Virus record (IMG/VR): IMGVR_UViG_3300006921_003877
Span: 1 to 60,090 of that record
Source: a virus
Taxonomy: Duplodnaviria > Caudoviricetes
Direction: 5' to 3' (one strand)
DNA length: 60,090 nucleotides
The translations under genes were made by a program, and so were the position numbers. How positions within the stretch are numbered: position 1 is the first letter of the stretch; the number at the start of each line of letters is the position of its first letter. This document shows, in pieces, positions 6,498 to 45,249 of this stretch. Below the pieces are notes generated by a model, which did not search any database, was not told the DNA's origin, and saw only the letters and a program-made list of their open reading frames with translations.

Positions 6498-6872
6498 ATG
6501 CCAAGACCTAAAAGAAAACAAGTTAACTTAGATAAACAAAGTATTGAACAAATACTACAAGAAAGTTATAATGAGACTTGTGAAAACCGTTCGAAGGCTG
6601 TGCAAGTCCTTAATAAACAACTTAGAGATGTAAATGATAACAATGACATCCAACAGGTTGGTAAGGTAAATAATGAATTACTACGAATAATTGATTCCTC
6701 AATATCAAAAAAGTTGGAGATTGTGAAACTCCAAATTTCTCTTGTTAAAACTGATAATTCTTCTGAATCCACATCATCTGTTCACTTAACAGACGAAGAT
6801 AAAGAATTAATCCAAAATATGATTAAAGAATCCGAAGAGGGAGAAGATAAGGGTATCTCATATGACATCTAA
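6498..6872 (+). CDS. Hypothetical helical protein
   Basis: Clean ORF after the TATTTATA motif at 6475; first gene of a tightly packed operon. Confidence 0.6.
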   Translation: MPRPKRKQVNLDKQSIEQILQESYNETCENRSKAVQVLNKQLRDVNDNNDIQQVGKVNNELLRIIDSSISKKLEIVKLQISLVKTDNSSESTSSVHLTDEDKELIQNMIKESEEGEDKGISYDI

Positions 6873-6883
6873 AACAATAGACT

Positions 6884-12691: not shown

Positions 12692-14605
12692 TTATCTTAA
12701 CTCATTAATACCAAATGTTACTACACCATCGACGTTGATAGTACCGTAGAATCTGTTGTTAACCATCTTCTTAGCGTATCTTGTCATTATACCTTTGATT
12801 GGTGCAAAGTTAAATGGATTATACATAGTAGGTGTAAGTTGTAACGGAACGTAAGGAGCGTATACATAACCAGTATCTAGTAATGATTTTCCTTTATGTC
12901 CAATTAATATCTTACCTGCTGGGAAGTAAGGATCTCTATATACAGTATATCTACCTGATAAAGAACCAATCTTCTCAATACCCATATTATAAGAATCTTG
13001 CTCTGGTGACGCGTTAGACACGTGGAAGTATTCTAAATCATCAAATATTGCAGAAACCTCAGCTGAACATACGATCCAGTTAGCTCCTCCTCTAAGAGTT
13101 GATTTATGAATTTGAGCAGATAATTGATTTACCGTAGTAATCAATGTTTGATTCCAATCTTTTTGAGTGTAAGCATTGTAACCTTGACCATTGTTAGATC
13201 TTCTCCAACCATTGTAGTCCCATCTTAACGTCCAAGCCGCACCATTTCTAAGGTCTTTCAAGATTTCTCTATCAATCTCAGCCGCAACTTGTTCTGATAA
13301 TAAAGCTGTTAATTCAGCCTCAGCATCAATGTTGTGGAATGCAGACACGTCTTGTGCAAGTTCAGGAGACCAAGTAGCTCTTAGTTTTCTTTCTGTTACC
13401 GCTACAGTTACAGAATCTAATCTAAATGTTACTTCAGCCATGTTATCTTCTAACTCCATGTTAGCGTAAGATAAAACCTGAGCCACAAGTCCTAAAGCTG
13501 ATGCAGTAGGTACACCCGCTGCCGCTATATAGTTAGCGTTGTTAGTAGCAGTAGAATCTGGATTACCATAACCTCTACCTTCAACAGTCGTACATGTTGG
13601 ACATGCTGGACAACCAAAGTCAATCTCGATTAACATGTTACCTGTACCTGCGTAAGGTGCTATTGTACTTCCAGATACAAGACCTTGACCGTACTTTTGT
13701 GTTACTGTTCTGTACTTTAATGGAGTACCACCAGATATCAACGGCATATCTAAAGCCGGATCAGTTATCGTACCACTATCAGCTGTACCACCATTTAATT
13801 GGTAAAGAGCAGCTGTTGAGAAAGTATCAGCAGATGTATTACAAGAAACCATTGGTCCTGCAATTGCGTCTCTCGCAGCAGTTGTAGCACTTAAGTAAAT
13901 TACTAAACCTGCTAAGAAAGCTTCAGTATCAGCTAATTGTCCATCAGGACCTACTAATGTTCCTGTAGTAGATAAGATAGAAGAAGAAATTAATCCTGTT
14001 ACGTATCTGTTAGCTGGATTACTTAACGGTACACCGTTTGTATCAGTTCTTCCTGAGAAAGTTCCAATATTTGGGTAAGCTGTTGACGCCACTGTTGTAA
14101 GTCCACCTGGAACTACAGTTACTGGAGTAACAGTTCTTTTACCTCTTGATGCATCAAATAATCCTCTCGCTGGAGAAGCGTTATTTTCATAGAATTGGTC
14201 ATATAAATCTACACCTGAAGGAGTAGAAGCATTGAATCCACCGTTAGTAGAGTCAAAACCAGGTCTGTTAGTAGATACCTCTGGTACAAAGTAGAATAAT
14301 TTACCAATTGGTAAGTTTAACGCTTGTACTGATACGATATCGTTAGCCAAAAGTTTAGAGAATACTCTCCTTACGATTGGGAATACAACTGTTTCGAAAG
14401 AACCTGAATCAGTTGCTGTTGTTTGTTCGTTGATTAAGTAAGACGCTTGATTCTCAAATAATTGAGCAACGTTGTCTTTACTATAACCATTTAGGCCATC
14501 TAGGAATCCTAGTTTGTCCCATTTGTTAATTACGTCTTCACGGATAAGTTTCATTGAATTAGTTCCAATGTTTCCAACTTGTCCTGAGTTTAATAAATGT
14601 CCCAT
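12692..14605 (-). CDS. gp23: Major capsid protein, T4 gp23-like
   Basis: FPIVRRVF..LLANDIVSVQ, RKLRATWSPELAQD, AEIDREI, YAPYVPL and GIMTRYA motifs; LINE/Q is a likely maturation site. Confidence 0.95.
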   Translation of the reverse strand: MGHLLNSGQVGNIGTNSMKLIREDVINKWDKLGFLDGLNGYSKDNVAQLFENQASYLINEQTTATDSGSFETVVFPIVRRVFSKLLANDIVSVQALNLPIGKLFYFVPEVSTNRPGFDSTNGGFNASTPSGVDLYDQFYENNASPARGLFDASRGKRTVTPVTVVPGGLTTVASTAYPNIGTFSGRTDTNGVPLSNPANRYVTGLISSSILSTTGTLVGPDGQLADTEAFLAGLVIYLSATTAARDAIAGPMVSCNTSADTFSTAALYQLNGGTADSGTITDPALDMPLISGGTPLKYRTVTQKYGQGLVSGSTIAPYAGTGNMLIEIDFGCPACPTCTTVEGRGYGNPDSTATNNANYIAAAGVPTASALGLVAQVLSYANMELEDNMAEVTFRLDSVTVAVTERKLRATWSPELAQDVSAFHNIDAEAELTALLSEQVAAEIDREILKDLRNGAAWTLRWDYNGWRRSNNGQGYNAYTQKDWNQTLITTVNQLSAQIHKSTLRGGANWIVCSAEVSAIFDDLEYFHVSNASPEQDSYNMGIEKIGSLSGRYTVYRDPYFPAGKILIGHKGKSLLDTGYVYAPYVPLQLTPTMYNPFNFAPIKGIMTRYAKKMVNNRFYGTINVDGVVTFGINELR

Positions 14606-18348: not shown

Positions 18349-19038
18349 TTAATCTTTTAAGAAATTTTTAATTGTTTTATTCAAATCTGACTCCATTATT
18401 TTTTGGGGTTTAACAGATTCTACGTAAGGTTTAGCTTCGTCTACTTGATTAAATAAATAAGCTCCAGGGGTTGAAGGTGAAGAAACCAAATCAAAACAGA
18501 TTAATTCAAAATCATCTTGTACCATATTTTGTCCATTTACACTTTGTAAAGAACCGACTCCTCTTGAGGATATACCTAATTGTACACCGTGTCTTAGTAG
18601 ATTAGCTGCTAAATCTCCGGGTGTTGTTGTAACTCCTGTATTTTCATAAGCAGGAGATGTAATTAAAGTTAACTTCCCCATTAGTGTATTTCCGTCCCAC
18701 CAAGTTTCGTCTAATTTGTGAGATGTTCTTTCTAAATCTATGATTGACGAGTCTGGATGGTTTAACTCGGAAATAGCTCTACCATTTTTTATCACCTCTT
18801 GGTGTTTATCCACTTCGTTTCTAAGAATATTTTCTGGATAAATTCTTCCATTTCTGTTTTGAACTCCACATTTTTGTAGTACAGCAACCATTTGAATCGG
18901 ACCATAGCTTGTTCCGACTTCATTCATCTCTTTTATAATTTTTTTATTTTCCGTGATTTGGGGTGATATATATCCGGAGTCTTTTTCGACTAAAAGTCCA
19001 TACCCCACTTCTCCTTCTTTAAGTAATTTAAGTTCCAT
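18349..19038 (-). CDS. gp21: Prohead core protease, T4 gp21-like
   Basis: NRNGRIYP, ELNHP, GISSRGVGS and FDLVSSPSTPGAY motifs. Confidence 0.95.
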   Translation of the reverse strand: MELKLLKEGEVGYGLLVEKDSGYISPQITENKKIIKEMNEVGTSYGPIQMVAVLQKCGVQNRNGRIYPENILRNEVDKHQEVIKNGRAISELNHPDSSIIDLERTSHKLDETWWDGNTLMGKLTLITSPAYENTGVTTTPGDLAANLLRHGVQLGISSRGVGSLQSVNGQNMVQDDFELICFDLVSSPSTPGAYLFNQVDEAKPYVESVKPQKIMESDLNKTIKNFLKD

Positions 19039-26030: not shown

Positions 26031-29000
26031 CTACTGGTCTTTTAAGAATTGTAACTCATCCGGTGTTAATGAATCCATACCACCATCTGAAATTTTATCT
26101 AGAATAGTGTCAATGTCTAATTCTATTGGTCCTCCACCCATTTCACTACCAGCTGGGAATAAGTCTGAAATATCTATATCGTCCATTGGTTCTTCTAGTG
26201 TTGTAACATCTTCTTCTTCATATTCTCCTGTTGCGTCTTCGTATTCATCTTTTTGTATATCGTCCTTAATTCTTTTCGCCAAATCAACCATCATTTGTTT
26301 TCCTTTTTCACTTCCTGATTGTATTTCTTTCATAAAATCTAAAAATTGTTTGGCTGGCATTTGGATTATTTCACTATAAAGATGGTTTTTGACATCGAAA
26401 TCATCTGCACCGATAGCATCAATGAATCTCTCCCATAATCCTGGTCCTAATCTTAAATCCCACATTTCATCTTCTAAAAAGTCTGTTTTATCCATAACCT
26501 TTTGTCTTAATTCTTTATCACCTGGTAAACCATGTAAAGAAAGATATTCCATAACTCCTTTATGTAATTCATGGACCAACACAGGGAAAGTCATTCCCTT
26601 TGCCACAACTGTAGGTGGGGTAGTAGACAAATCAATCTTCTCTTTTCCAAATACTGGTGCTCCTTCTCCACCACCAGCTCCCATCATATCTGGCATAATC
26701 CAATACATAAGGTCATTCGCGGAAATAACAACCCCATATAAATTCATAAGGGTAGGGTCAATTGAGTTGAGTTCATCACTAACCATATGATATAGATAAA
26801 GTGCCTTTTTTGCAGACCCTTGCATCATTGAGTTTATGAAACGTCTTTTTGCCACTTCTAGATCCAATTCTTCTATATGTTCTAATGTTTCCTCCTCTTG
26901 CTCTAAAGACTCTTCTTTATTTTTAGGTTTTTGTTTCATATCGTCTTTCGATAACTTTTTCATTCCAGTTATCTCAACATCAAACTGTAAGGAACCTTCT
27001 GGAACATTTAAGTCTTTAGTCACTATCTCTACCGCTAAGTCCTCTAATCTTTGTTTATTAGAAGCTTCTATTCTTAATGTATTTTGTAGAGATTGCATCA
27101 TCATACCCTGTAATCCCATTAAATTTTGCATGTCAGTGGCATTCCCCTGAATGCCTGTATGTCTTTTGAACGTATCTACTACATCCTTAAATCTTTGTGA
27201 GGCGATTAATTCTTCATAATTATCATATACTTCGTCCTCCCCTACTTTTGGAAAAGCTGGGTGGTCTTTACCAAACGCAGTGTCCTGAGTCGACAACTGT
27301 CTCTCGATATTGGGGTTAATTCTTTCTGGTCTGTCTTCGTAATCTATTGGCACTTCTTGTAAACTTTGTTTATTTTCCGCTAATTTACTAATAATTTTTT
27401 TAATTTCATCTAAATTTCTAGGTTTTTCTGTGTAAGGACCAGATTGTTTAGTCAAGTCTTTTTTCTTGTACACTTTTCCTTTAGTTCCACCTCTGGTAGT
27501 TAACTCAGATAAGTATTCTAATAATTTTCCTTTTTTCATTTTTGGTTTTTTCATTTCACTTAATCCCATTACGTTCATATGTGCTGGACGAGGAACGTCC
27601 GAGTACATTTTATCTCTAGGTACATCACCTAGACCAAAGCCTGGATTTGAATTTATACCCCACACTTGTATCTCTTTAACTTTCTTCTTTTTCTTTTTCT
27701 TTTTTTCCGGTAATTTACTAAAATCTTTAGTATCGTCCCCAAACTCTTTTGCCCATTTTTTCCATTTTTTACCTTCTTTTCCTTTTTCATTTGCCTTTGC
27801 GTGAAAATATCTTGCCTGCGCTTTGGATTTGAATTCCTCTTCCATGTTTTGAGATGGGGTTTTTTGAGTTTTTGGGTCGTCGTATCTTGAACATTTCTTC
27901 TTACATTTTTTCATACTTTTGTAACATGGGTCTATACACTCGGATGATCGTTGTTGCATATGCATACAGCGTGACTTATTAAACGCATTACCTCCCTCCC
28001 AAACATCATACTCAAAACAACAATAACATGAAGCCCATTCCTTCTCTAACAACAAATTATTTGCCTCTTCTCCTTCTGTAATCTCCTCAAACCCTAAATC
28101 ATCAATATCATACATATGTTTTTCTTCGTCATCACCTCCTGTTGATGTTGGCTTTGCATGAACAACATTTGGGTCTTGGGGTCCAAAATCACCAATTACC
28201 TCACAATCCCATCCCATCCCATTGTGTCCAATGGGTGATCTACAATAACATCCGTGTGGAAAAACATTCCCCCAATACTCACACCAAACCTCTCCTGTTG
28301 CACAAGGTGTTCCCTTAGTATGAGGGTAACAATTCTGAATTTCTTTTAATAAACGAGGAGAGGTACCTTCTTCTAGTGTATTACCATAATTTACTCTATA
28401 TTTTTCTTCTTCTATCTTATTACTACACTTTGTAACTTTAATCTTCATACCATTCACCTCTTGTACCTTATTTACCCATTCACTACAATCATCCATACAT
28501 AAATCCTTAGTGTCTTTACATGTTGAATCAGATACTTGGTACAAGGTTCCGTTTGAACATTTACACTCATCCCAGTTACCTTCACTTTCTTCCATTATAC
28601 TTTCTGGGTCTTCACCTAGCTCAGCACCATCACTACTAAAATTATATGCTCCCCATTGAGAATCTGAGTCTCCATAGAATGTAGTAAACCCTTCATCCTC
28701 CAATTCAGGCTCAGATCCTAAAGGTCCGTGACTTTGGAAGTTATAACTACTATCGTCCCCATAACTCACATCAGCATATCCACTTTGTAGACCTGACATA
28801 CTATCTTCTGTAAGTGTTGCGGATATTTTCGCAATTCTTCTATTAAGGCTACCCATTTCATTAGTTAAACTTTGTATTTGTTTTTCTAATTTAGTTTTTT
28901 CCTTCTCTTGTTCGGGTGTTAAAGGTTGTGGTGCTTGTTCCGATACAGTGTCTTTTCCTGCTTCCGTATCTACACTTTGGAAATTCTTCAAGGCCTTATT

Positions 29001-29573
29001 TGCATTATCAATTCTTCTATTCAATGAATCAGAAACTTTCTTCTCCTTTTCAGAACTATAGGACTGATATTCTTCTTTTTCTTTATTTATGTTCTCTAAT
29101 TCTTCTTGTTTATCTTTAAGTTTTTTTGAGTCTGCTGCGTTTTGTTTAGCTTCTTTTTCTTGTTTTCGCATTGCAACAATTTGACTCTTTAGTTGGTTAA
29201 CTTGATCCTTAAGGGATTGATTCGGGTCTGCAGAGGATACTTGTTCCAAAATTTCTTCTATCATTTCCTCTCTTTCCATTATTGCTTGTTGATTTGCATA
29301 GTCCCACATTTGGTCGAGTATTTTTTCTGCACTAGTAACAAGTCCTTGGAAATACTCCAACTCCTCCTTTTCCATTCTTGCGTTTTTGGCGTCTTCTATT
29401 TGTTTATAAATGGTTGATAGTTGTTTTTCAAGATCTGATATTGTACCACCAGGTGAAGACTTAAGTGATTCTAACTCAGCTTTAGCTTGATTAATTTGAG
29501 CATCCAATTGTTTTATCTGACCACCCATTCCACCAGCTTGTTCCAATATTCTATGTAAATTTCTTAAACCCAT
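26031..29573 (-). CDS. Large modular protein (coiled coil, Cys-rich and basic modules, helical C-terminal domain)
   Basis: 1180 aa; modules flanked by ILE, LTE, LKE, LLE, LSE and LQE. Confidence 0.6.
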   Translation of the reverse strand: MGLRNLHRILEQAGGMGGQIKQLDAQINQAKAELESLKSSPGGTISDLEKQLSTIYKQIEDAKNARMEKEELEYFQGLVTSAEKILDQMWDYANQQAIMEREEMIEEILEQVSSADPNQSLKDQVNQLKSQIVAMRKQEKEAKQNAADSKKLKDKQEELENINKEKEEYQSYSSEKEKKVSDSLNRRIDNANKALKNFQSVDTEAGKDTVSEQAPQPLTPEQEKEKTKLEKQIQSLTNEMGSLNRRIAKISATLTEDSMSGLQSGYADVSYGDDSSYNFQSHGPLGSEPELEDEGFTTFYGDSDSQWGAYNFSSDGAELGEDPESIMEESEGNWDECKCSNGTLYQVSDSTCKDTKDLCMDDCSEWVNKVQEVNGMKIKVTKCSNKIEEEKYRVNYGNTLEEGTSPRLLKEIQNCYPHTKGTPCATGEVWCEYWGNVFPHGCYCRSPIGHNGMGWDCEVIGDFGPQDPNVVHAKPTSTGGDDEEKHMYDIDDLGFEEITEGEEANNLLLEKEWASCYCCFEYDVWEGGNAFNKSRCMHMQQRSSECIDPCYKSMKKCKKKCSRYDDPKTQKTPSQNMEEEFKSKAQARYFHAKANEKGKEGKKWKKWAKEFGDDTKDFSKLPEKKKKKKKKVKEIQVWGINSNPGFGLGDVPRDKMYSDVPRPAHMNVMGLSEMKKPKMKKGKLLEYLSELTTRGGTKGKVYKKKDLTKQSGPYTEKPRNLDEIKKIISKLAENKQSLQEVPIDYEDRPERINPNIERQLSTQDTAFGKDHPAFPKVGEDEVYDNYEELIASQRFKDVVDTFKRHTGIQGNATDMQNLMGLQGMMMQSLQNTLRIEASNKQRLEDLAVEIVTKDLNVPEGSLQFDVEITGMKKLSKDDMKQKPKNKEESLEQEEETLEHIEELDLEVAKRRFINSMMQGSAKKALYLYHMVSDELNSIDPTLMNLYGVVISANDLMYWIMPDMMGAGGGEGAPVFGKEKIDLSTTPPTVVAKGMTFPVLVHELHKGVMEYLSLHGLPGDKELRQKVMDKTDFLEDEMWDLRLGPGLWERFIDAIGADDFDVKNHLYSEIIQMPAKQFLDFMKEIQSGSEKGKQMMVDLAKRIKDDIQKDEYEDATGEYEEEDVTTLEEPMDDIDISDLFPAGSEMGGGPIELDIDTILDKISDGGMDSLTPDELQFLKDQ

Positions 29574-33053: not shown

Positions 33054-35507
33054 ATGAAAGAATTAAAACCAATAAAAAATATTATTAGAGCAGGGTTAGA
33101 AGTTGCTAAAAGTTATGACGCTTCTTCTATCAGACCGGTCCATTTATTTATGGGTGTTATTAAACACGGTAATAATAGTTCGTGCGAATTATTATTAAAT
33201 TTAGGACTAGACTTAGACTCCATTGCAAATTTAGTACAAGAATTATTACATATAAATGAGTCCGAAAGTTCATTTACAAGCATTATACCTTTTACCACCG
33301 AAGCTCAAATGGTCTTAGATAATGTTAATGCCGAAAGATTACTACTAAAAGATAAGGAGGTTAACACCCACCATTTGACGCTTTCAATATTATTTCAAAA
33401 AAATGCGGCCATTACAAGATTTTTGTCTAAATTTGGGGTTGAATATAAAACGTATAAAAAAGAATTATTAAATATGAGTATGATGTATAACGAAGAGCCT
33501 TTTGGACAAAAGGATGACGGAACAAATAAAGCAGAACCTAAAGAAACAACAAATACACCAATTCTTGACAATTTTAGTAGAGATGTAAGTGCTGAAGCCA
33601 AAAAGGGTAATTTAGATAAAATTATTGGTAGATTATCTGAAGTTGAGCGTATTGCACAAATATTAAGTAGAAGAAAAAAGAACAATCCAGTTCTTATCGG
33701 TGAACCTGGAGTGGGTAAATCCTCAATCGTAGATGGATTAGCCATAAAAATTAATGATAAAAAATGTCCTAGACCTTTAATGGGTAAAAGAGTAGTATCA
33801 TTAGATTTAACCTCTCTTGTGGCTGGGACTAAATATAGAGGACAGTTTGAAGAACGAATAAAAGGACTTCTAGATGAAGTTAGGGGAGATAAAAATATTA
33901 TTCTTTTTATTGACGAACTTCACACTATGGTTGGTGCTGGGAATTCTTCAGGATCAATGGATGCAGCTAACATTCTTAAACCAGCCCTTTCAAGAGGAGA
34001 GATACAATGTATTGGGGCCACCACTTTGGATGAATATCGAGAACATATAGAAAAAGATGGGGCATTAGAGAGAAGATTCCAAAAAGTTATGGTGGAACCC
34101 CCTACTAAAAAACAAACTTTAACAATATTAGAAAATATAAAAGAAATATATGAAGATTACCATAAAGTGACTTACACTGACGAAGCAATAAAGACTTGTG
34201 TTGATTTATCAGAAAGATATATAACTGATAGAAATTTTCCTGATAAGGCTATTGATGTGTTAGATGAAGCTGGGGCTAGAGTTGCTGTTAGTATGAAACC
34301 TCCTAAAAATATAGAGTCTGTTGAGAAACAGATAGATAATGTAAAGGAAGAAAAGAATAAGGTTGTTCTGTCACAACAGTATGAGAAAGCGGCGAATCTT
34401 AGGGATAAAGAAAAAAACCTTAAGACTAAATTAAAGAAGTTTGTAACTGAATGGGAGGATCAACTACTAAAGGAAAGACCTATTGTCGACGAAGATGGTA
34501 TACTAGAAATTATTTCGATATCCACTAACATTCCGGTCACTAAACTAAATGAAGATGAGTCCCAAAAACTTTTAGATATAGACAAAGTACTTAAAGGGGC
34601 TATAATTGGTCAGGACATGGCAATAACAAAAGTTTGTAATTCTCTAAGACGTAATAGAGTTGGTATTAAAAACCCTAATAAACCTATTGGTAGTTTTATG
34701 TTTTTAGGTCCTACCGGAGTTGGTAAAACTGAATTGGCTAAACAATTGGCTCTTGAAGTTTTTGGAACAGAAGATAGTCTTATCCGAGTAGATATGTCAG
34801 AATACTCAGAAAAGTTCGCAGCAACTAAAATGATTGGTTCTCCTCCAGGATATGTTGGATATAATGAAGGTGGTCAACTAACCGAAAAGGTACGACGTAA
34901 ACCATATTCTCTAGTTCTATTTGATGAGGTGGAGAAAGCCCATCCGGATATTTTTCATTCCTTATTACAATTACTAGATGAGGGTTTTATGACAGATGGA
35001 ATGGGAAGAAAGATTAACTTTAGAAACTGTTTAATTGTAATGACCTCTAACATAGGAATGCGTGAAGTAGAAGAATTCGGTGCGGGTGTAGGTTTCCAAA
35101 CATCTAACCACGATGACCAATACAATGATCGCGTACAAACAATTATAGATAAAAACTTAAAAAAACAGTTTAATCCTGAATTTATTAATAGATTAGACGA
35201 TATTGTGATATTCAATAAGTTGGATAAAAAAGATATCGTGAAAATTCTAGATGTTCATTTAACTTTATTAAAAGAAAGAATGTTAGATATGGGGTATACG
35301 ATAAAAGTAAATAAAAGCGCTAAAGACTTAATTGTTGAAAAGGGATATAGTGATAAGTATGGTGCGAGACCAATGACTAGAGCCATATCTAATTATTTAG
35401 AGGATGCGATAGCAGAAGAAATGTTAAAATCTAAGGTCGAAAAGGGTTCAACCTTAGCCATTAGTTATGAGAAAAAAACAAATAAAGTCAAAGTTAAAGT
35501 AAGTTAG
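33054..35507 (+). CDS. clpC: ATP-dependent Clp protease ATPase subunit ClpC
   Basis: Clp N-domain, NBD1 GEPGVGKS/FIDELH, UVR-type M domain (QQYEKAANLRD), NBD2 GPTGVGKT/FDEVEKAH and GVGF loop. Confidence 0.92.
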   Translation: MKELKPIKNIIRAGLEVAKSYDASSIRPVHLFMGVIKHGNNSSCELLLNLGLDLDSIANLVQELLHINESESSFTSIIPFTTEAQMVLDNVNAERLLLKDKEVNTHHLTLSILFQKNAAITRFLSKFGVEYKTYKKELLNMSMMYNEEPFGQKDDGTNKAEPKETTNTPILDNFSRDVSAEAKKGNLDKIIGRLSEVERIAQILSRRKKNNPVLIGEPGVGKSSIVDGLAIKINDKKCPRPLMGKRVVSLDLTSLVAGTKYRGQFEERIKGLLDEVRGDKNIILFIDELHTMVGAGNSSGSMDAANILKPALSRGEIQCIGATTLDEYREHIEKDGALERRFQKVMVEPPTKKQTLTILENIKEIYEDYHKVTYTDEAIKTCVDLSERYITDRNFPDKAIDVLDEAGARVAVSMKPPKNIESVEKQIDNVKEEKNKVVLSQQYEKAANLRDKEKNLKTKLKKFVTEWEDQLLKERPIVDEDGILEIISISTNIPVTKLNEDESQKLLDIDKVLKGAIIGQDMAITKVCNSLRRNRVGIKNPNKPIGSFMFLGPTGVGKTELAKQLALEVFGTEDSLIRVDMSEYSEKFAATKMIGSPPGYVGYNEGGQLTEKVRRKPYSLVLFDEVEKAHPDIFHSLLQLLDEGFMTDGMGRKINFRNCLIVMTSNIGMREVEEFGAGVGFQTSNHDDQYNDRVQTIIDKNLKKQFNPEFINRLDDIVIFNKLDKKDIVKILDVHLTLLKERMLDMGYTIKVNKSAKDLIVEKGYSDKYGARPMTRAISNYLEDAIAEEMLKSKVEKGSTLAISYEKKTNKVKVKVS

Positions 35508-36498: not shown

Positions 36499-37125
36499 AT
36501 GGATAAAAAGACTTTTAGAACAATACTATCACTTTCATTATTGGGGTGTCTGTTATATTATACGATGACTCTTTCACAAAAGTTTCAATCAAAGGTAGAA
36601 AATTTAACAGAAGATTTAGTAAAAACCAAACAGGAATTTTATTGTACTATAAATAGTATTAATGAGATATACCAAAGTGCTTTAGATTCTTTACCTCTAG
36701 GTTCTCCTTTAGATACTATTTCCATTTCTTCTAATTATGGAATTAGGAGAGGTCCTTTAGGTGGTGGATGGAGAATGCACTCAGGTATTGATCTTAAAGG
36801 AACAAAATGGGATACCGTATTTGCGACCGGTAACGGATTCATCTCAATGGCCACTTGGAACGCGGGATATGGTAAATGTATAAAAATTGACCATATAGAA
36901 GGGTACTCGAGTAAATACGCCCACTTATCAAAAATATTTGTTAAAAAAGGAGATTTTGTTCTTAAAGGAATGCCATTAGGAAAATGTGGAAGTACTGGTG
37001 CTAGTACAGGACAACACTTACATTATGAAATAAACATCAACGGAAAAACTGTTGACCCTTACCTATTCTTGTTCTTTGATTCTATCCTTAAGGACCGCAA
37101 TAATACCTTCTTGGAAATTAAGTAA
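36499..37125 (+). CDS. M23 family peptidoglycan endopeptidase with N-terminal membrane anchor
   Basis: HSGIDL, GYGK, YAHLS, GSTGASTGQHLHYE and VDP motifs; hydrophobic N-terminus plus coiled coil. Confidence 0.9.
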   Translation: MDKKTFRTILSLSLLGCLLYYTMTLSQKFQSKVENLTEDLVKTKQEFYCTINSINEIYQSALDSLPLGSPLDTISISSNYGIRRGPLGGGWRMHSGIDLKGTKWDTVFATGNGFISMATWNAGYGKCIKIDHIEGYSSKYAHLSKIFVKKGDFVLKGMPLGKCGSTGASTGQHLHYEININGKTVDPYLFLFFDSILKDRNNTFLEIK

Positions 37126-38466
37126 CATTTCTTTTCTCATTTCTTTAGGTAGATACATGATACCACTGATATTAGTTATACATTTATGTCCTCCTGAATT
37201 TGCTTGTATAATGTCCCAAGCAGAAACCCAACCTGATTTTAATATTTTTTGTTGTTTATCGGATAGTTTATTCTGAGGTTTATCCATTATATCCTTAAAA
37301 AGATTAGTATAACTAGAATCCTTTTCTAGATTTATCCCTCTAACTTTATCTCCATAAAAGGCCTTTAGATCAGCCAAACCAAAACCAGCACTAAATTCTT
37401 GTGTTTTACGTTCACTTGTCCATTTAATTCTATCTACTGTTATTTTTTCATTTTCTAAAACAGTTTTATATCGATTTAATACTTCTTGAGCAATATCACC
37501 TAAATTAATACCTTTTAGACTCCTCTCTTCCTTAAATGGATTACACGAAGCTTGTACTAAACCCATTGGCCAAGCAATTACAAAAAAGTTTGCATCGGGA
37601 TGGTTCTTAAATGGTACGTAACGATCATAAGATCCTGGTTTCATTAAATAACCACCACCATACTGTGAAATAATCCCATCCTCATATTTAACTTTTTCAC
37701 TATCTTTTTGTCTCTCGATATAATCTGTTTGGTTTTGTAACATTTCTTCTGGTGTTGCATAACCTTTTTCAGAAGCTATTTTTTTAATATTAATTAATAT
37801 GTTTAGTAGTGATGGTGAAGAATTCATAACTAAACTTTCTAAAAAATCAGGTTTATTTTTATAAGCTAAAAGTAATTTATTAGTCAGAAGTCCTATCATT
37901 TTTTTATTTTCAGAAGAAGATTTTTGTTTATCAATGTTTAACATAAAATTCATCACATCTTCTGGTTTAATACCGTGTTTTACAAAATCCGCTGAATCCA
38001 CTGCAGATATCATCGCTATATCTTCATTAGGGAAAATATCTTGGGGACTAACCACTTGAGAAATTGTTTCTACGTTAGAACGAGCTCCTCTAAATTGTGT
38101 AGACGTATCTTTTTCTACTCCTGATTGGGAGTCATGGTGATCGGTGTGGATTGTAAATTGAGGTTTGCCGTGAGCAAAATCAACAAGGACTGGCATAACA
38201 TCACCAGTAGCGTCTGGTTTTTTAACTTGGAATTCTTTTTCTCCGTATTGAATTACGTGTGAGTCTACCGTTTCGATGCCGTTATTTTTTAGGTATTCTC
38301 TCATTGCGATGGCCGTTGCCACCCCATCAGTATCCTGGTGAAAATATATCTCCGCCTTAGGATATCTTTGAGCCAATTTCTTAATATCCCTTATTCCAGT
38401 CTCAATAAGTAAGACTTCATTTATTATATCACCTATTTCTTGTTCTGTTAATTTTATACGTTCCAT
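37063..38466 (-). CDS. DHH-family phosphoesterase
   Basis: YFHQDTDG, VDFA, TDHH, AVDSAD and C-terminal GGH motifs. Confidence 0.75.
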   Translation of the reverse strand: MERIKLTEQEIGDIINEVLLIETGIRDIKKLAQRYPKAEIYFHQDTDGVATAIAMREYLKNNGIETVDSHVIQYGEKEFQVKKPDATGDVMPVLVDFAHGKPQFTIHTDHHDSQSGVEKDTSTQFRGARSNVETISQVVSPQDIFPNEDIAMISAVDSADFVKHGIKPEDVMNFMLNIDKQKSSSENKKMIGLLTNKLLLAYKNKPDFLESLVMNSSPSLLNILINIKKIASEKGYATPEEMLQNQTDYIERQKDSEKVKYEDGIISQYGGGYLMKPGSYDRYVPFKNHPDANFFVIAWPMGLVQASCNPFKEERSLKGINLGDIAQEVLNRYKTVLENEKITVDRIKWTSERKTQEFSAGFGLADLKAFYGDKVRGINLEKDSSYTNLFKDIMDKPQNKLSDKQQKILKSGWVSAWDIIQANSGGHKCITNISGIMYLPKEMRKEMLLNFQEGIIAVLKDRIKEQE

Positions 38467-38502: not shown

Positions 38503-39558
38503 CTAAACCTCTTGTAACATATGGTTAGCCAAAGCACTCGACACAGTTTCTACTAATTTTTCTAGAATTAGATAGGGATCACCGTTACTAGCCGGTCTCC
38601 TATCTTCTAGATAACCTTTCCAGTTATTTTTTACTGTAGATATAGGAATACGTATACTAGACCCCCTATCACTAACTCCAAAACTAAACTTATCTATAGA
38701 TTGTGTTTCATGTAATCCTGTTAATCTTTTTTCATTGTTTGCACCATATACCTCGATATGTTCTTGGTGAAAAAATCCTAGACTTTCACAAATATCGGTA
38801 AAGAGTTTTTCTCCCCCCTTTTCTCTAGTTTCTTCTGTTGAAAAGTTCACATGCATTCCGGAACCGTTCCAATCACCTTCAACTGGTTTAGGGGATAGAT
38901 TAACAACCACTTGATATCTCTCCATTAACTTTATAAGAAGGTATCTGGAGATTATTAATTCGTCTGCGGACCTTAAAGTATTTTTAGACATTAATTGGTA
39001 TTCCCACTGACCTATCATAACTTCCGCATTAACCCCTGTAATATTTAACCCCGCCTCTAAACAGGTGTCCATATGTTCCTCAACTAAATCTCTCCCTTCT
39101 ACGTTATTGGTACCAAGGGCACAATAGTAGGGTCCTTGAGGTCTCGGATATCCTATTGCCGGAAAACCTAAAGGTTTATCCTGTATATTAGTTAAAACAT
39201 ATTCCTGTTCAAAAGCAAACCAGAACCTATGTTTATCAGCAATTTTACTTTTTTCTCTTAATTTATGTCTAGTATTTGTTTCATGGGGACTCCAATCAGG
39301 ATTTAGTACTTCACATAAAACTATAAATCCCCCATCTCTTGTAGGGTCTTTCACAATATAAACTGGTTGTAATAAACAATCGGAATTTTCTCCTGTTGCT
39401 TGTAATGTAGAACTACCATCAAAAGACCACACTGGTAAGTTTTCCACTTTAAGTCCATCTTCTATATCACCACTATCTATGATCTTTGTTTTACTTCTAA
39501 TATTTTGTTCTGGATTATATCCATCCAACCAAATATACTCTAGTTTAATCTTACTCAT
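38503..39558 (-). CDS. glnII: Glutamine synthetase type II
   Basis: LEYIWLDG, RSKT, WSFDGSST, PQGPYYC, NAEVMIGQWEYQ, GDWNGSGMH, RLTGLHET and YLEDRRPASNGDPY motifs; 351 aa. Confidence 0.95.
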   Translation of the reverse strand: MSKIKLEYIWLDGYNPEQNIRSKTKIIDSGDIEDGLKVENLPVWSFDGSSTLQATGENSDCLLQPVYIVKDPTRDGGFIVLCEVLNPDWSPHETNTRHKLREKSKIADKHRFWFAFEQEYVLTNIQDKPLGFPAIGYPRPQGPYYCALGTNNVEGRDLVEEHMDTCLEAGLNITGVNAEVMIGQWEYQLMSKNTLRSADELIISRYLLIKLMERYQVVVNLSPKPVEGDWNGSGMHVNFSTEETREKGGEKLFTDICESLGFFHQEHIEVYGANNEKRLTGLHETQSIDKFSFGVSDRGSSIRIPISTVKNNWKGYLEDRRPASNGDPYLILEKLVETVSSALANHMLQEV

Positions 39559-39628: not shown

Positions 39629-40609
39629 TTATTTGAATTTACCTTCTACTTCTATTTCCCACCCTTTTCCTTGGGAATCCACGAAGTCATGAAAATCTTT
39701 TAATTTGTATTCACCGAACTCTTCAAAAGGAATATCCTTACTGGAGGCACTTGAGTTGGTGTCGATGCGAGCAACTTTACCTAAAGGACTTAACCAAATT
39801 AAATAAATTTTTGAGGTGTTACCCCACCCTCCAGGTTTTGTTAACCTAATTTTATTAAACATTTTTTTGAATTTCTCAAACATTTCATCTGGAAATCTCC
39901 TATTTCTTTTTGTTCCCCCTCCTACAAAATGTTCCCTTAAAAACGCCTCTTCTAAAGGGCTATTTTTTTTGAATTTCGATTTCAACTTTTCAAGTATATT
40001 AGCAAATGCCTCACCAACAGTTATAGTTCCTAAATAAGCTAACATTCTTGTGACTATGTCCTCCACTTGATCAATACTACCTCCCATATTCAACATAATT
40101 TCGGACAAGGTTGTAATAACTGGTACAATAAAGGCAAACCCCATAATTTTCGATAATCCTCTTACTGTCATACCAGCAGTACGAAGTATATTCTCCATTA
40201 AACTTTCAAAACTACTTACAAATGATAAAACCTTATTAAACGCCTTGGAAAGTCCTTCATCTTTAAGGGTTTTTACAAGATTAACTATTTCCGTCTTATT
40301 ACCAAAGACAATTACCCCTACGGCCGCAATTGTAAGTGCCACTATCTGGATTTCATTTAAGTTAGGAAATTCCCCCGCTATTAATTCTGAAGTAGGACCC
40401 ACAAGTGCGGTAATACCCGCACCATAAGTAAACATAAAAGTTAAATCCATACCAAACTGATCACCTACTTTTTTTATTAGGTTTTTATCGGTGTATGGGT
40501 CACTTTTCATAAACTCGTGTAGATATTCCTCATGAAGAGACTTCAAAAGTTTTTCATTCTGTCCATTTAATAGTCTAAGTTGTTCCTCTGTTATTATAAT
40601 TTTACTCAT
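39629..40609 (-). CDS. Protein with several hydrophobic helices and putative capsid-targeting N-terminus
   Basis: Starts MSKIIITEEQLRLL; central hydrophobic helices. Confidence 0.55.
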   Translation of the reverse strand: MSKIIITEEQLRLLNGQNEKLLKSLHEEYLHEFMKSDPYTDKNLIKKVGDQFGMDLTFMFTYGAGITALVGPTSELIAGEFPNLNEIQIVALTIAAVGVIVFGNKTEIVNLVKTLKDEGLSKAFNKVLSFVSSFESLMENILRTAGMTVRGLSKIMGFAFIVPVITTLSEIMLNMGGSIDQVEDIVTRMLAYLGTITVGEAFANILEKLKSKFKKNSPLEEAFLREHFVGGGTKRNRRFPDEMFEKFKKMFNKIRLTKPGGWGNTSKIYLIWLSPLGKVARIDTNSSASSKDIPFEEFGEYKLKDFHDFVDSQGKGWEIEVEGKFK

Positions 40610-43600
40610 TACACATCGATTAATTCAATTTTATCCCCTATCTTTATATTATAATTATCCACACCACCACTAACAAGTTCTAAAGCTTGGTTTCCATTTA
40701 CATTACCATAATTTTCACATTGTTGTTCTTCACAAGGTTGTACATCTTTATCATAGTCAACCACTTCCCCATCTACCATATAAATTATATCTAACGGTAA
40801 AAAAGTATTTTTCATCCACATTGATATCGGTACTATGTCGTCCCATAAAAATAACATTCCTCGATTGTTCGGGTAAGAAGTTTTATACATCATACCTTTA
40901 TTTTTTAGGAATGCTGTGTCCGCAACATCTAACTGTATTTCTTTCCCGTTTACTATTGCTCTAGGGTCATTATACGGTTTTTCAAATCTTTCATTTAATT
41001 TATTCCTATCTTTAGGGAAACGATAAATGTCTGCGTCAGGAAGTAACGCCATAGGTGTTAAACTTTCAGGTCCCATAATCCAGTTTACTAAAATTTTATA
41101 AGCGAAATCTCCAGGCTTACCCTCAAATCCCATTACAACTCCTTTTGTTTTAACTGGGATACTATAAGGGTCATCCATGTAGAGTAGTTCAATAACGTCA
41201 CCTTCTACCACATCTGGATTAAGATCTGGATTATCCTCTACATTATCCATTCCTTGGTGTTCATTCATTTTAACAGGTATGTTAAACGGTCCCTTATCTA
41301 GTCTTGGTTTAAGTATAGTTTTTTTAACTTTTTTTGAACCTTGTGGTATTGATGTTTCGCCTTCTTCTGGTGAAATATCGGATAAGTGAACATTACCCCT
41401 GTGTTGGTGAATAATATCAAAACCATCGTCCTTATATAAATCTGTGTTACCTATATTATCACTCCCGTCTAGGGTGAAGAATCCTCCTTGTTCTCCTGTA
41501 TGTTTTTTCTGGTCGTCTCCAACACCTTCTGTTATTTTAGGTATCTCTACTCTCCTCTCCAGTTCTCCAGCATCTTGGATGTTTGAATCGTATGCCTCAT
41601 AATCTCCCCAATCATAAGTTTCCAAGTCACCACCCCAATCATGAAATTCAGTATGACCTTTTTCTTCGGCATCCTCATTATCAAATGCAAGTACTTCTGC
41701 ACTACCGGACTTGTACTCAACCTGTGACCCTGTCTCATCCATATCCACGTTATAATATTTAATCATATTTCTTTCGGGGTCTTCCATAGTGTAGTCTCCT
41801 TCTTCGTTCCAATTATCTAAAGCGTATTTTGCGTATTGAGTTGATACTGCGGCTTGTTCTATTGACCTAGTCGGTATCCCAAACATTTTCATAAGTTTGG
41901 ACCATTTTTTACTTATGTCTCCATATTGTGGTGTTTCAGTTGTTAACTTTTCAAGTTCGTCTTTAGTGAAATTTTTATGTATGTGTTTTATTATTAAAAG
42001 TTCTCCTTTATCAAATTCTCTATTAGTAAAAAATCCATAGTCTTCATTAATCGTTCTATCTTCGGTTGGTTTCAAGTCCTCTACCTCGATACCCCTTTTT
42101 GGTTGTAAAGGTGGCTCCAATAAAAACTTTTGGTTTAGGTAATCCCTTAATAAATTCTCAACAAACCAATCTGGAACTGGTTCATTATCTGGTCGTGTTG
42201 CCGCAACATCTGCAACATATCTAGCAAACTTTAATTTATACTTATCCTTAATCATCTGAAGTAGTCCGTCAGATACAAAAAATACTTTTCCTAATGGGTC
42301 ATCCCCTAAAGCAACGTCTGGTATATAATCACCCTCTGCTATGTCCATGGCTTTAAGTACTACCTTACCCCACCATGATTTATAACCTCTGGTGTCTTTA
42401 AGTGCTGGTGTAACCATTTTATTAATTGCTCTAGTTGCGGTAACACCAACGGCTGCTAATAATATTTGTGGTATAAAAAATGGTATGATTCTCCACAGTG
42501 TCTTGAAAGCACCTCGTCCCATGTCTGCAGCAATTCTTTTTTTAGTTGCCGTTTCAACTAAAGCCTTAAGTTGTCCAAAGGTTATTGGTCCTTGTTCTTG
42601 ACAGAAACCTTCCACTGTACAGATATTATCTGTAACTTCTTTAGAAGGGGCAACAAAACCTTTAGCTGGATCCGTTTCACCACCAGTATAAACATATTCA
42701 TCTTCTTCTTTCTCTTCAGGTTCGTTTAGTTTCATTAACTCTTCCCATTCTTCATCACTTCCTTCAAATTCCTCAGGTTCGATAGGATCCATTAAACCTT
42801 GTCCAAAAATATCAGTTTCCTCATCAATTTGCTCCTTTTCTTCATATGGAGTTACATCAAATTCATATTGTAACTCATGTAATCTATCATTAAGTGATTC
42901 ATTAATATCATAATTAGGATAATAGTAGTTACTAAAAAACTTTGAGTCGGGTTCTAGTAAATCTCCTCTTTTACCATAATCATAATCTTCGAAGGTAAAT
43001 TCTTCTAATATAAGTGAGGAGAATATCGCCATAGGTAGGTTATCTTCTATTGAATTGTCCGATAACCAATCTTCTAAAGTTGTTCCTCTATAGTCTGGAT
43101 GAAATTCATATACATCTATATTGTCCCACATATCGTCTTCCAACCAATTTAATAAATTATCTTTAATCGTCCAACTGTATCTACCATTGTCATCTTTTTC
43201 TAATTTACCGTGATTCTGAAAATGTTCTGCTAATTTATCTATAACATCATCAGCCATATCTTTTTTGGTTGCCCATTCTGCCTCGTCATTATGGGACCAC
43301 ATTATACGAGACCTGATTTCACTAATTATTTCTTCTTTTTCTTCCGCTAATATATCTTCCTCCTCTGTTTGTGATCTTAAATTAATTAAGTTTTCTGCAA
43401 CATCTTTATCCTTAACACCTAGAATGTGCGTTATTAGTTTCCAATTTTTATCGTCCAAATCATCAGACATACCATCATACCAATCAGTGTCATACCAATT
43501 ATCATAGTCTTGCCATTCATAATCACCACATAAAAATTCTTTAATATAATCTACACTATAATCTCTAGAGTCTTTAATAAACATATTCGCTAGATCATCA

Positions 43601-45249
43601 CAATCAAAACTATAGGAAACTGGAATCGGTTTCATTGTATTTTTAAGATATCTTTTTACCAACATCACTCTAACTGTCGCATTGTGTGTTGGTATTCCCA
43701 GTAATTTCAAATCATCAAAATTTATACCAGTTTTATCCCATTTTTTGAATAAGAACGTAACCGCTTGGTCTGATACTTCTTCTTTAACCCAGTCTACTGT
43801 CTCTTGGTCACCCCCTGCAATAATTTCTCCGTTTTCTTGTTCAAAATCTTCATACCCAACAGGAAATTCAAATTCTCCAATTGGTGTTGGTAAATCTAAT
43901 TCCATTTGTTCTTGTTCATTTAATTCAATTGTTTGTCCGGTATCTATACCACCCGTTGTTTCTCCCAAATCAACTAGGGCCAATTTTCCATTTTTCATTC
44001 CTAAATTATCAATACCAATATCACTCCAACTAATACCATGTTGTGTCAATTCTTGTCTAATCATTAATAGATTTTTGTGTAATTTTTCACATTCTTCTTT
44101 TCCATTAACAGGGGGGTTAATAATCGCTGGGGTTTCGTTGTATTCAATATAAATTGGTTTATTAACTCCACAACAACAATTTTCAAATGTTTCAGCCATT
44201 CGTTTTGGTAATCCTAATTCTTCCATAATAATGATATATCCCTCACCATTAACAATGTGTGATGAATCTAATTTCCCACTCTCGAAAACATCGGCTATAT
44301 ATTTATTTTGTTTTCCTTTAAGGGTGTTAGCTGTTTCGTATTCACTCTTATCTCCTGTTAGTTTAATAACATTTCCTTTTGACGTGAAATAAGCGGTACC
44401 ATTTCCTCCTAACATTTCATCTACTACTTTTCCATAACCTTTCTGTTTAGCTAATTTATCCACTAACACTCTAGGTTCAACGTCAAATTGTAATTCCTTA
44501 TAACCACCCACATAAAAATCTCTATCATTATAAGGGTCAAATTCTAAAGAATCTAATACGTCTTTTCTTTGTTCGGGATTATTACGGTATTGTTGGTCGA
44601 TGGCGTATTTTATTTCTGTATCGATTTCTTCTCTAATAAGATCAACATCACCATATGTTCTATAAAAACTTAATAAAACCGCTAAAAGATTTTCTGAATT
44701 ACTACCACCTATACTCCAGTAATCAATTTCATCCGGTTCCAACTCATATTGCTTATAATCATAAATAAATGTAGGACCGACTTTCATTTCTCCCATATCG
44801 TCAAAGATTATGGACCATTCCATTTTAGTTTTACCACCACTATCTCCAAAATCAAACTGACCATAAGTTGACAGTCCAAACACCCCCTCAATCTCTATCA
44901 TTTGAACACCGTCAAGTTCTCCGACTCTGTGGGTCCCAGCACCTCCTTGGTCTTGTACTTTATATCCTGGAGCAACAACTGGATTAATATCTCCATTTGT
45001 TAATTCCTCACCACTTTTGTTTTGATTTAGATACATCATATAACCATAGTAAAAACCCATTCCTGTTTTACCATAGAGTTTTAACATATTATCAAGTTTT
45101 TCCCACCAAGATTCACTTATGAAAGTCATGTTCTCAGCATAGGTGCTGTCATATAAATTAAAAGCCTCAATCAATATCTTTTTATCGATATCTTCTACAG
45201 GGAACGTATGCGGTCCAACACTGACATTTTCTTTATTGTGATTTCTCAT
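40609..45249 (-). CDS. 1546 aa multidomain (poly)protein: kinase-like, DUF4314-like and DUF192 modules
   Basis: GGNGTAY..VIKLT...DIGIDNLG...LVDLG; IELLYMDDPY; VADT...KGMMYK...GMLF...WMKNTFLPLDIIY. Confidence 0.7.
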   Translation of the reverse strand: MRNHNKENVSVGPHTFPVEDIDKKILIEAFNLYDSTYAENMTFISESWWEKLDNMLKLYGKTGMGFYYGYMMYLNQNKSGEELTNGDINPVVAPGYKVQDQGGAGTHRVGELDGVQMIEIEGVFGLSTYGQFDFGDSGGKTKMEWSIIFDDMGEMKVGPTFIYDYKQYELEPDEIDYWSIGGSNSENLLAVLLSFYRTYGDVDLIREEIDTEIKYAIDQQYRNNPEQRKDVLDSLEFDPYNDRDFYVGGYKELQFDVEPRVLVDKLAKQKGYGKVVDEMLGGNGTAYFTSKGNVIKLTGDKSEYETANTLKGKQNKYIADVFESGKLDSSHIVNGEGYIIIMEELGLPKRMAETFENCCCGVNKPIYIEYNETPAIINPPVNGKEECEKLHKNLLMIRQELTQHGISWSDIGIDNLGMKNGKLALVDLGETTGGIDTGQTIELNEQEQMELDLPTPIGEFEFPVGYEDFEQENGEIIAGGDQETVDWVKEEVSDQAVTFLFKKWDKTGINFDDLKLLGIPTHNATVRVMLVKRYLKNTMKPIPVSYSFDCDDLANMFIKDSRDYSVDYIKEFLCGDYEWQDYDNWYDTDWYDGMSDDLDDKNWKLITHILGVKDKDVAENLINLRSQTEEEDILAEEKEEIISEIRSRIMWSHNDEAEWATKKDMADDVIDKLAEHFQNHGKLEKDDNGRYSWTIKDNLLNWLEDDMWDNIDVYEFHPDYRGTTLEDWLSDNSIEDNLPMAIFSSLILEEFTFEDYDYGKRGDLLEPDSKFFSNYYYPNYDINESLNDRLHELQYEFDVTPYEEKEQIDEETDIFGQGLMDPIEPEEFEGSDEEWEELMKLNEPEEKEEDEYVYTGGETDPAKGFVAPSKEVTDNICTVEGFCQEQGPITFGQLKALVETATKKRIAADMGRGAFKTLWRIIPFFIPQILLAAVGVTATRAINKMVTPALKDTRGYKSWWGKVVLKAMDIAEGDYIPDVALGDDPLGKVFFVSDGLLQMIKDKYKLKFARYVADVAATRPDNEPVPDWFVENLLRDYLNQKFLLEPPLQPKRGIEVEDLKPTEDRTINEDYGFFTNREFDKGELLIIKHIHKNFTKDELEKLTTETPQYGDISKKWSKLMKMFGIPTRSIEQAAVSTQYAKYALDNWNEEGDYTMEDPERNMIKYYNVDMDETGSQVEYKSGSAEVLAFDNEDAEEKGHTEFHDWGGDLETYDWGDYEAYDSNIQDAGELERRVEIPKITEGVGDDQKKHTGEQGGFFTLDGSDNIGNTDLYKDDGFDIIHQHRGNVHLSDISPEEGETSIPQGSKKVKKTILKPRLDKGPFNIPVKMNEHQGMDNVEDNPDLNPDVVEGDVIELLYMDDPYSIPVKTKGVVMGFEGKPGDFAYKILVNWIMGPESLTPMALLPDADIYRFPKDRNKLNERFEKPYNDPRAIVNGKEIQLDVADTAFLKNKGMMYKTSYPNNRGMLFLWDDIVPISMWMKNTFLPLDIIYMVDGEVVDYDKDVQPCEEQQCENYGNVNGNQALELVSGGVDNYNIKIGDKIELIDV

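Follow-up and report, generated by a model that had tools for sequence, protein, structure and literature searches.

A candidate effector polyprotein with head-protease-type motifs at its module joints in an uncultured jumbo myophage

The internal proteins IPI-III and the Alt protein of bacteriophage T4 travel to the host as cargo of the phage head: they enter via the prohead core, are released by cleavage and are ejected together with the DNA. Alt acts as an enzyme on proteins of the host and modifies them. Each T4 cargo is encoded by a gene of its own and carries its own leader of 7-19 residues; for the internal proteins, of which IPI-III are described as basic, N-terminal capsid-targeting peptides of 10-19 residues have been reported that end in a site for the prohead protease gp21 and are removed in the prohead, with gp21 cleaving after L/I-X-E (PMC9026906). 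Here we analyse an open reading frame (ORF) for a protein of 1546 amino acids (aa) from an uncultured jumbo myophage, the genome of which comprises about 300 kb and includes T4-type head genes. It is located at 40609..45249 on the minus strand (stop codon 40609-40611) of the IMG/VR record IMGVR_UViG_3300006921_003877, which is 60,090 nucleotides long, was analysed as a whole and is referred to as the window. By analogy, the ORF product could follow the logic of the T4 cargo proteins, with which it shares the protease family (Peptidase_S77) and the cleavage rule (L/I-x-E). Unlike in T4, up to eight cargos would reside on a single chain with internal sites (3602 aa in one relative), and the modules are acidic, not basic.

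In its architecture the protein resembles the polyvalent proteins as these are described by Iyer et al. (2017, PMC5512222): 2-15 unrelated domains are found on one polypeptide, compared with about eight here, mosaic architectures and solo versions of the domains are encountered in both cases, and Zeta-toxin-like kinase and peptidoglycan-acting domains occur among the relatives. Delivery together with the DNA is predicted for the class. Processing by MPTase domains of their own and head association by MuF or portal fusions are described as frequent, though not obligatory, for polyvalent proteins (Iyer et al., 2017). In contrast, Pfam searches returned no peptidase, MuF or portal family for the protein studied here, neither for the whole chain (E <= 1) nor for its separate modules (E <= 10), and its joints carry the predicted site of a separate head protease. 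DUF192, which forms its C-terminus, does not occur in the main text of the cited paper.

A single product that is cut by the virus's own protease during particle maturation is otherwise a feature of RNA viruses and retroviruses (Gag-Pol). There is no homology to these polyproteins, the virus considered here is a tailed phage with double-stranded DNA (dsDNA), and the chain would consist of accessory cargo, the content of which varies between close relatives, and not of a core set of replication or structural proteins. Large phages that pack many proteins with their DNA also include SPN3US, phiKZ and 201phi2-1. The cleavage motif of the phiKZ type is [AGS]xE, and this motif is depleted at the breakpoints of the family described below. 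In giant phages the prohead protease is reported to cut after Glu in a three-residue motif and to process long propeptides at several sites; 13 of the 14 protease sites mapped in SPN3US remove N-terminal propeptides, and none of those mapped releases a series of mature domains (PMC10052503). Searches of the open-access literature yielded no description of a phage polyprotein with a head-protease site at its joints, which is not proof of absence. Work on Aquificae viruses, in which 'polyprotein' has another meaning, and a paper on PaBG proved irrelevant.

Shuffled modules and the motif at their joints

Our favoured interpretation, to which we assign a probability of roughly 0.55, is that the ORF encodes an effector polyprotein of the polyvalent type, which would enter the prohead and be cleaved there by the head protease, and the products of which would be ejected with the DNA. 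The extent, length and minus-strand location of the ORF agree exactly with the first-pass annotation, and its frame is real: full-length relatives (P0002-P0004; 1547-1551 aa, 80-95% identity) are encoded on independent contigs, which makes an assembly or frame artefact unlikely.

Module borders were derived from a set of 99 relatives (850-2706 aa, the length range searched and returned), the BLAST high-scoring segment pairs (HSPs) of which were mapped onto the query. Homology breaks off around residues 429-461, 790-839, 1022-1100, 1211-1262, 1315-1343 and 1410-1424, and inside these zones lie, in the same order, the motifs LNE|Q (445), IDE|E (810), INE|D (1069), ITE|G (1241), MNE|H (1330) and LNE|R (1420). 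An extra border, IRE|E at residue 207, precedes the kinase-like module. As set by these breakpoints, the ORF encodes about eight modules, designated A to H from the N-terminus, with module D also termed M3 and module E termed M4. Five of the six boundaries that had been proposed from the sequence of the window, i.e. those at 445, 1069, 1241, 1330 and 1420, coincide with the breaks. The sixth, LNE|P at 843, was rejected as a border: the motif is present at one of three nearby HSP borders, is not kept in relatives and resides within the conserved acidic leader of M3, the conserved border being IDE|E 810.

The modules constitute independent units that have been reshuffled: of the 74 relatives with two or more HSPs, 61 have a module order that is not collinear with that of the query (F-D-G-C-E in P0019 may serve as an example), and modules form separate genes elsewhere. 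The proposed fusion of unrelated modules is thereby borne out, as is the expectation that related phages would contain the same modules separately or in another order. The M3-bearing ORFs at five IMG/VR loci in phage records of 190-298 kb comprise 938, 1787, 2007, 3039 and 3602 aa. At loci L003 and L005 modules B, C and E (kinase-like, acidic and M4) are found in a second large modular ORF (4875-8828, 1317 aa, and 1226-5254, 1342 aa, respectively), and at L006 and L007 module F is encoded by a separate ORF of 435/436 aa. Other domains present in relatives are PAP2 (10/99) and AAA_33 (9/99), and a weak match to Zeta_toxin lies just below the cut-off.

The joints between the shuffled modules share a short motif. 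Borders were scored for [LIVMF]xE no more than 2 residues away from where the site was projected, for which the chance is about 0.13. At site 810, the N-terminal border of M3, the motif was present at 83/83 HSP borders and in 15/15 distinct upstream flanks; in every relative, hydrophobic-x-Glu stands immediately before the conserved block E-[TS]-D-[IV]-F-G-Q-G, irrespective of the sequence further upstream. Site 445 carried it at 35 of 40 borders (11 of 12 distinct outer flanks), site 1241 at 22 of 23 (6 of 7 distinct flanks) and the N side of site 1330 at 23 of 24. Projection of site 1069 by offset gave only 6/40 and 5/51 borders and failed because the linkers vary in length, so a motif-anchored count was used instead: all 44 distinct contexts of the C-terminal M3 border contain [LIVMF]xE 8-21 residues after FLL.PPL, followed by divergence, with a background chance of 0.56 for the motif in a 30-residue span.

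A second test was independent of the query. All-against-all BLAST of 105 family proteins, reduced to 80 non-redundant ones, resulted in 394 left and 396 right breakpoint clusters after de-duplication by context, many of which are not true borders because BLAST ends are fuzzy. The motif [LI]xE was found at 141 left breakpoints versus 55.2 expected (p 3e-27) and at 135 right breakpoints versus 55.8 expected (p 1e-23), an enrichment of 2.4-2.6-fold, and [LIM]NE was about 5-fold enriched (38 versus 8.1 and 42 versus 8.2). Decoy motifs were flat or depleted, with left and right ratios of 0.76 and 0.95 for [LIVMF]xD, 0.65 and 1.06 for the corresponding xQ, 1.07 and 1.19 for xK, 0.95 and 0.93 for xN, 0.66 and 0.88 for [AGS]xE, 1.27 and 1.17 for [DEKR]xE and 1.26 and 1.14 for Ex[LIVMF]. 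What is enriched is thus specifically the combination of Leu/Ile at P3 with Glu at P1. In the query itself, [LIM]NE occurs six times versus 1.37 expected. The P2 residue at the joints varies (N, T, D, Q, S, R), and with it the underlying DNA, which renders a conserved DNA recombination signal unlikely. Judged from the breakpoints, the junction sites are presumably exposed. A comparable feature is seen at the N-termini of the family, where [LIVMF]xE falls within residues 4-20 in 26 of 38 distinct sequences, compared with 39% as background (p 3e-4).

Content of the modules

When searched as a whole, the protein yielded nothing but the C-terminal DUF192 in Pfam and no family at E <= 0.01 in PHROGs; the best E value obtained for the eight separate modules against PHROGs was 5e-4, and all families matched are of unknown function. 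All modules are encoded on the minus strand.

Module B (residues 208-445, 43915..44628, ending with LNE|Q 445) is present in 19 of the 99 long relatives and contains the strings GGNGTAY (281), VIK (294), DIGIDN (410) and DLG (427), from which a protein-kinase-like module had been predicted. A full-library search returned 193 homologues at E <= 0.001, many of them solo, and kinase-like proteins of about 200 aa exist on their own. In an alignment of 32 sequences, G281 and G284 of the Gly-rich loop (GxGxxG), K296 (the beta-3 Lys), D410, N415 and D427 are near-invariant; D410-x4-N415 corresponds to the catalytic loop and D427 to the metal-binding Asp of D(F/L)G. The best 60 of 318 matches (E <= 1) in a profile search against the PDB are all chains with a kinase fold (best E 3.7e-5). 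The AlphaFold2 model of the module (predicted local distance difference test, pLDDT, 85; predicted template modelling score, pTM, 0.83) gave 98 Foldseek matches in the PDB at E <= 0.001 (best 9.1e-5), those listed comprising protein kinases, two aminoglycoside phosphotransferases and one axoneme entry, with template modelling (TM) scores by query that are modest (0.33-0.45). An earlier phmmer search against the PDB had given unconvincing matches to eL19 and ASF1 (best E 0.0099) and is superseded by the profile search. Conserved motifs, profile matches and predicted structure agree, and on this footing the kinase-like fold of module B is real. The module ends 18 residues past D427, and many solo homologues likewise end directly after D-x-G. 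A kinase-like domain this reduced, many relatives of which are solo proteins, merits a study of its own.

Module D or M3 (residues 811-1069, 42043..42819, ending with INE|D 1069) exceeds all other modules in both distribution and conservation, being present in 88 of 99 relatives with a median identity of 74%. It is composed of an acidic leader (811-843), a conserved helical core (about 863-1051) and a short tail up to INE|D 1069; conserved features are two Cys residues, a GPITFGQL block, a hydrophobic stretch with R-x2-P-x-F-x-P-Q and the end FVENxLRxxxNxKFLLxPPL. The hydrophobic stretch (residues 921-939, 42433..42489) reaches a Kyte-Doolittle value of 1.92 over 19 residues, is the sole strong peak in the protein and holds invariant P and Q residues. 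The AlphaFold2 model of M3, which is of moderate confidence (pLDDT 68, pTM 0.48), is all-helical, and a helix of 55 residues runs through this stretch. Of the hydrophobic hairpin suggested previously, the hydrophobicity is recovered as a single stretch inside a long predicted helix, which by itself does not show a hairpin. Foldseek found nothing at E <= 0.001 for the M3 model in the PDB or BFVD. M3 may act as a carrier for entry of the chain into the prohead or take part in ejection as a membrane-active component, both of which are guesses. It also exists as stand-alone proteins of about 200-240 aa. Three stand-alone ORFs with the M3 core (about 220-270 aa, 31-34% identity) are encoded by uncultured phages of 635-735 kb (LR756501, LR756502 and LR745206; loci L009, 5797-6525, L010, 5884-6552, and L011, 5704-6516), and each contains L-x-E shortly past the first in-frame Met. 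An unannotated module that is conserved across phages from about 200 kb to 735 kb deserves separate investigation.

The C-terminal module H (residues 1421-1546, 40612..40989) is a clear DUF192 domain, as had been proposed: PF02643 matches residues 1438-1542 of the whole protein with an E value of 4e-23, and the module alone matches profile positions 1-95 of 96 with E 4.7e-25 and 88 bits versus a gathering threshold of 27. The accompanying statement that DUF192 usually stands alone does not hold as a rule here, since the domain is C-terminal in 16 of 99 long relatives and resides inside a cyanophage protein of 665 aa. Among the matches listed in a search of the open-access literature on DUF192 nothing bears on its function. 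For module G (residues 1331-1420, 40990..41259, ending with LNE|R 1420; 53 of 99 relatives) the previously noted similarity to DUF4314 was recovered as a remote match (PF14192, E 0.0038, residues 1349-1393), the score of which stays below the Pfam gathering threshold (17.6 versus 27 bits); phrog_2431 and phrog_3782 are matched with E values of about 5e-4. M3+DUF4314 fusions of 285 aa occur among the relatives and have precomputed PF14192 matches, which makes a remote kinship of module G with DUF4314 plausible.

The acidic module predicted earlier is likewise confirmed in its acidity: module C (residues 446-810, 42820..43914, ending with IDE|E 810; 55 of 99 relatives) has an isoelectric point (pI) of 4.14, with 92 Asp and Glu among 365 residues, and a weak Pfam match to DUF7446 (E 0.003) that remains under the cut-off. 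Module A (residues 1-207, 44629..45249, ending with IRE|E 207; 12 of 99) has no match in Pfam or PHROGs. Module E or M4 (residues 1070-1241, 41527..42042, ending with ITE|G 1241; 84 of 99) is duplicated in some relatives; its profile search against the PDB had a best E of 0.021 (calmodulin) and zero stretches passing alone, and the protein atlas contained no usable match. Together with module F (residues 1242-1330, 41260..41526, ending with MNE|H 1330; 38 of 99), modules A, C and E have no recognisable relatives of known function in Pfam and PHROGs, or, for M4, in the PDB profile search and the protein atlas.

The head protease, the proposed mechanism and its rivals

A prohead protease of the gp21 family (Peptidase_S77) is encoded in the window at 18349-19038 on the minus strand (phrog_207, E 2.6e-45; PF03420, E 6.2e-26). 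Peptidase_S77 is also present in three of five related records, the other two being only 60-61% complete. The motif found at the joints recurs in head proteins. In the major capsid protein, a member of the Gp23 family according to PHROG and Pfam searches (12692-14605), the N-terminal region can be aligned to the propeptide of T4 gp23 and contains INE at residues 58-60 (14426..14434, minus strand), which constitutes a predicted maturation site INE|Q; INE is kept in 3/3 related phages, the whole region being 72-76% identical. Between the protease and capsid genes a very acidic protein of 437 aa is encoded (14628-15941, minus strand) in which [LIM]NE occurs five times versus 0.39 expected, and which is therefore probably a scaffold degraded by the protease.

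The mechanism we put forward starts from about eight autonomous modules that would be joined by short linkers ending in L/I-x-Glu. The whole chain would probably enter the prohead core, where the gp21-family protease could cut after Glu at each exposed junction, giving rise to predicted products of about 24, 27, 43, 29, 20, 10, 10 and 14.5 kDa. These would stay in the head and exit with the DNA, and the kinase-like domain and other cargo could then affect the host at an early stage of infection, with M3 serving one of the two roles considered above.

A number of points weigh against this interpretation. Support for it is at the level of sequence. A motif as short as this is common: the total of [LI]xE in the protein (24) hardly differs from the 21.9 expected by composition, and in the query alone the presence of [LIM]xE in 7/7 zones is weakly significant (permutation p 0.023), so that significance rests on the family-wide tests; it is the placement of the motif that is non-random, and not its abundance. 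Moderate values were obtained for the C side of site 1330 (19/31 borders) and for site 1420 (23/38 borders, 4/9 distinct flanks), and site 207 is backed by two borders only (2/2). The chain has no clear short N-terminal targeting peptide, since its first L-x-E, LIE|A in module A, does not end until residue 28 and is possibly part of a folded region. Every module is acidic, with pI values of 4.1-5.8, in contrast to the basic T4 IPI-III; the gene is 21 kb away from the head-gene cluster, with non-structural neighbours; and the capsid site INE|Q comes 11 residues before the position that LTE65|A of T4 gp23 takes in the alignment. The kinase-like module lacks the C-terminal lobe (activation segment, APE, helices F-I), which leaves a protein substrate conjectural, and the module of the window matches no Pfam family, while among the 32 aligned members Pkinase was detected in two (best E 0.0071) and ABC1 in three (best E 0.011). 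Kinases without a C-terminal lobe have been described in polyvalent proteins of phages of Bacteroidetes and Verrucomicrobia (Iyer et al., 2017, PMC5512222); the correspondence in the missing C-terminal subdomain is one of description and not of alignment.

The motif at the joints could also belong to a chain that is never cut, a single multidomain protein, delivered or cytoplasmic, in which hydrophobic-x-Glu would have a role in linking or capping, or would have arisen as modules recombined. Proteins of the polyvalent type that are moved uncut are on record (N4 vRNAP, ArdC/TraC1; PMC5512222), and an overall motif count not above expectation would be in line with this. The specificity of the signal is then left unexplained, given that P1 shows no enrichment of Asp, Gln, Lys or Asn (0.65-1.19) and [AGS]xE is depleted; the variable P2 speaks against a conserved recombination signal, and the capsid protein and the scaffold-like protein carry the same predicted motif. 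We know of no structural reason why unrelated modules should end in a conserved Leu/Ile at P3 and Glu at P1, and consider an uncut chain unlikely. Cleavage itself need not imply packaging, because T4 gp21 cuts a loop of a cytoplasmic CD-NTase at an LPE motif, as reported in a 2026 preprint (PMC12991175), a finding that has made processing without packaging more credible. The Peptidase_S77 enzyme or another Glu-specific protease might thus process the chain in the cytoplasm late in infection, and the products would act in the producing cell, in host takeover, defence evasion or envelope remodelling. The junction statistics, which reveal a gp21-type motif at the joints and nothing beyond it, would suit this, as would the metabolic or chaperone-like neighbours (glutamine-synthetase-like, ClpB-like, Peptidase_M23) and an N-terminus without a short T4-like targeting peptide. 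Yet T4 gp21 is built into the prohead core and limited by autoproteolysis (PMC9026906, PMC12991175), many family members as well as stand-alone M3 proteins start with short L/I-x-E leaders that resemble the capsid-targeting peptides of T4, and polyvalent proteins are generally argued to be delivered by the virion (Iyer et al., 2017, PMC5512222). We regard processing without packaging as rather improbable.

A structural virion component, i.e. a tape measure, tail or head-decoration protein, might come to mind for a large ORF in a myophage, more so as the relative P0077 bears the source annotation 'muramidase (phage lysozyme)' and Peptidase_M23 genes adjoin the polyprotein genes at L004, L006 and L007. 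An order that is permuted in 61 of 74 relatives and a length between 938 and 3602 aa do not suit a length-determining or lattice-forming protein, PHROGs contain no matching structural family, and the content is enzymatic (kinase-like, PAP2, AAA_33). We have rejected this idea on account of permuted order and highly variable length and deem it very improbable.

Should the packaged and cleaved effector polyprotein be confirmed, it would join two ideas that have been separate, polyvalent effector proteins and head cargo released by a protease in the manner of T4, and cleavage at the joints would by itself establish a polyprotein strategy in a tailed dsDNA phage. More tentatively, and somewhat short of even odds, a family of jumbo phages with T4-type heads could use a true polyprotein strategy, in which interchangeable effector cassettes are arranged on one chain around an M3 carrier, enter the prohead together in a single targeting event and are separated by the protease at L/I-x-E. 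One targeting event would then deliver a variable, rapidly reshuffled arsenal into the host, and very large multidomain phage proteins of up to 3602 aa could be understood as sets of small enzymes. A parsing rule for such giants would follow, namely L/I-x-E at homology breakpoints in phages with Peptidase_S77, which would also predict virion cargo in uncultured jumbo phages.

The cyanophage protein with an internal DUF192 mentioned above, QJT70110.1 (665 aa; locus L021, 553-2550), is encoded next to the large terminase gene of the cultured, T4-like Synechococcus phage SynMITS9220M01 (MT408532). MSE|S and IEE|G stand on either side of its DUF192, and other segments are separated by additional x-N-E and x-S-E motifs. 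The protein is a possible cultured case of a multi-module protein cut by a head protease, and its apparently similar construction suggests that the principle may extend beyond the uncultured clade.

Genome context, host and neighbouring genes

The 60,090-base record is rated 18% complete by CheckV, from which a genome of roughly 300 kb is deduced; related records range from 190 to 298 kb, and the one of 298 kb is rated 93% complete. In addition to the capsid and protease genes, a T4-type portal (22316-24157) and the large terminase (24226-25989) are encoded in the window, and the presence of T4-type head genes on the same record shows the phage origin of the polyprotein gene. The phage is probably marine and probably infects a member of the Bacteroidota. 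This is deduced from a type-9-secretion sorting domain, from capsid-protein matches, the better of which include Flavobacterium phages, and from the names of relatives, two of which contain TARA while one designates a Bacteroidota metagenome-assembled genome. The sorting domain (Por_Secre_tail, E 7e-14) forms the C-terminus of a 1353-aa ORF (50064-54125, minus strand), which also contains a weak T4_Y03C/phrog_2192 stretch and no [LI]xE versus 4.2 expected. A Bacteroidota secretion signal on a phage protein is unusual and hints at the host.

The gene neighbours of the polyprotein are kept only in the near-identical record L002, and other loci share just a Peptidase_M23 homologue, so that synteny yields no functional clue. 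In the window the Peptidase_M23 protein (36499-37125, plus strand, E 5e-30) overlaps the 3' end of a convergent ORF (37063-38466), and its homologues beside the polyprotein genes are located at 16250-17626 in L004, 5409-6731 in L006 and 4059-5423 in L007. Two genes downstream of the polyprotein a shortened glutamine-synthetase-like enzyme of 351 aa is encoded (38503-39558, minus strand), with matches to Gln-synt_N (E 9e-12) and, restricted to profile positions 5-158 of 344, to Gln-synt_C (E 2e-17). A ClpB/Hsp104-like double AAA+ protein of 817 aa (33054-35507, plus strand; phrog_4871, E 7e-245) comprises the domains Clp_N, AAA, AAA_2 and ClpB_D2-small. Beside the terminase gene lies an 1180-aa ORF (26031-29573, minus strand) that lacks [LIM]NE and has just one weak match in PHROGs, which is SbcC-like (E 1e-4).

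The head-gene cluster further encodes two Cys-rich proteins of 620 aa (16483-18345, minus strand) and 436 aa (19650-20960, minus strand) without matches in Pfam or PHROGs. They share a repeated motif, Q-S-x-N-Q-P-Q-S-Y-F-T-G-P-Y...C, and have N-terminal leaders with LNE| or LFE| sites, features with which they may be head proteins processed by the protease.

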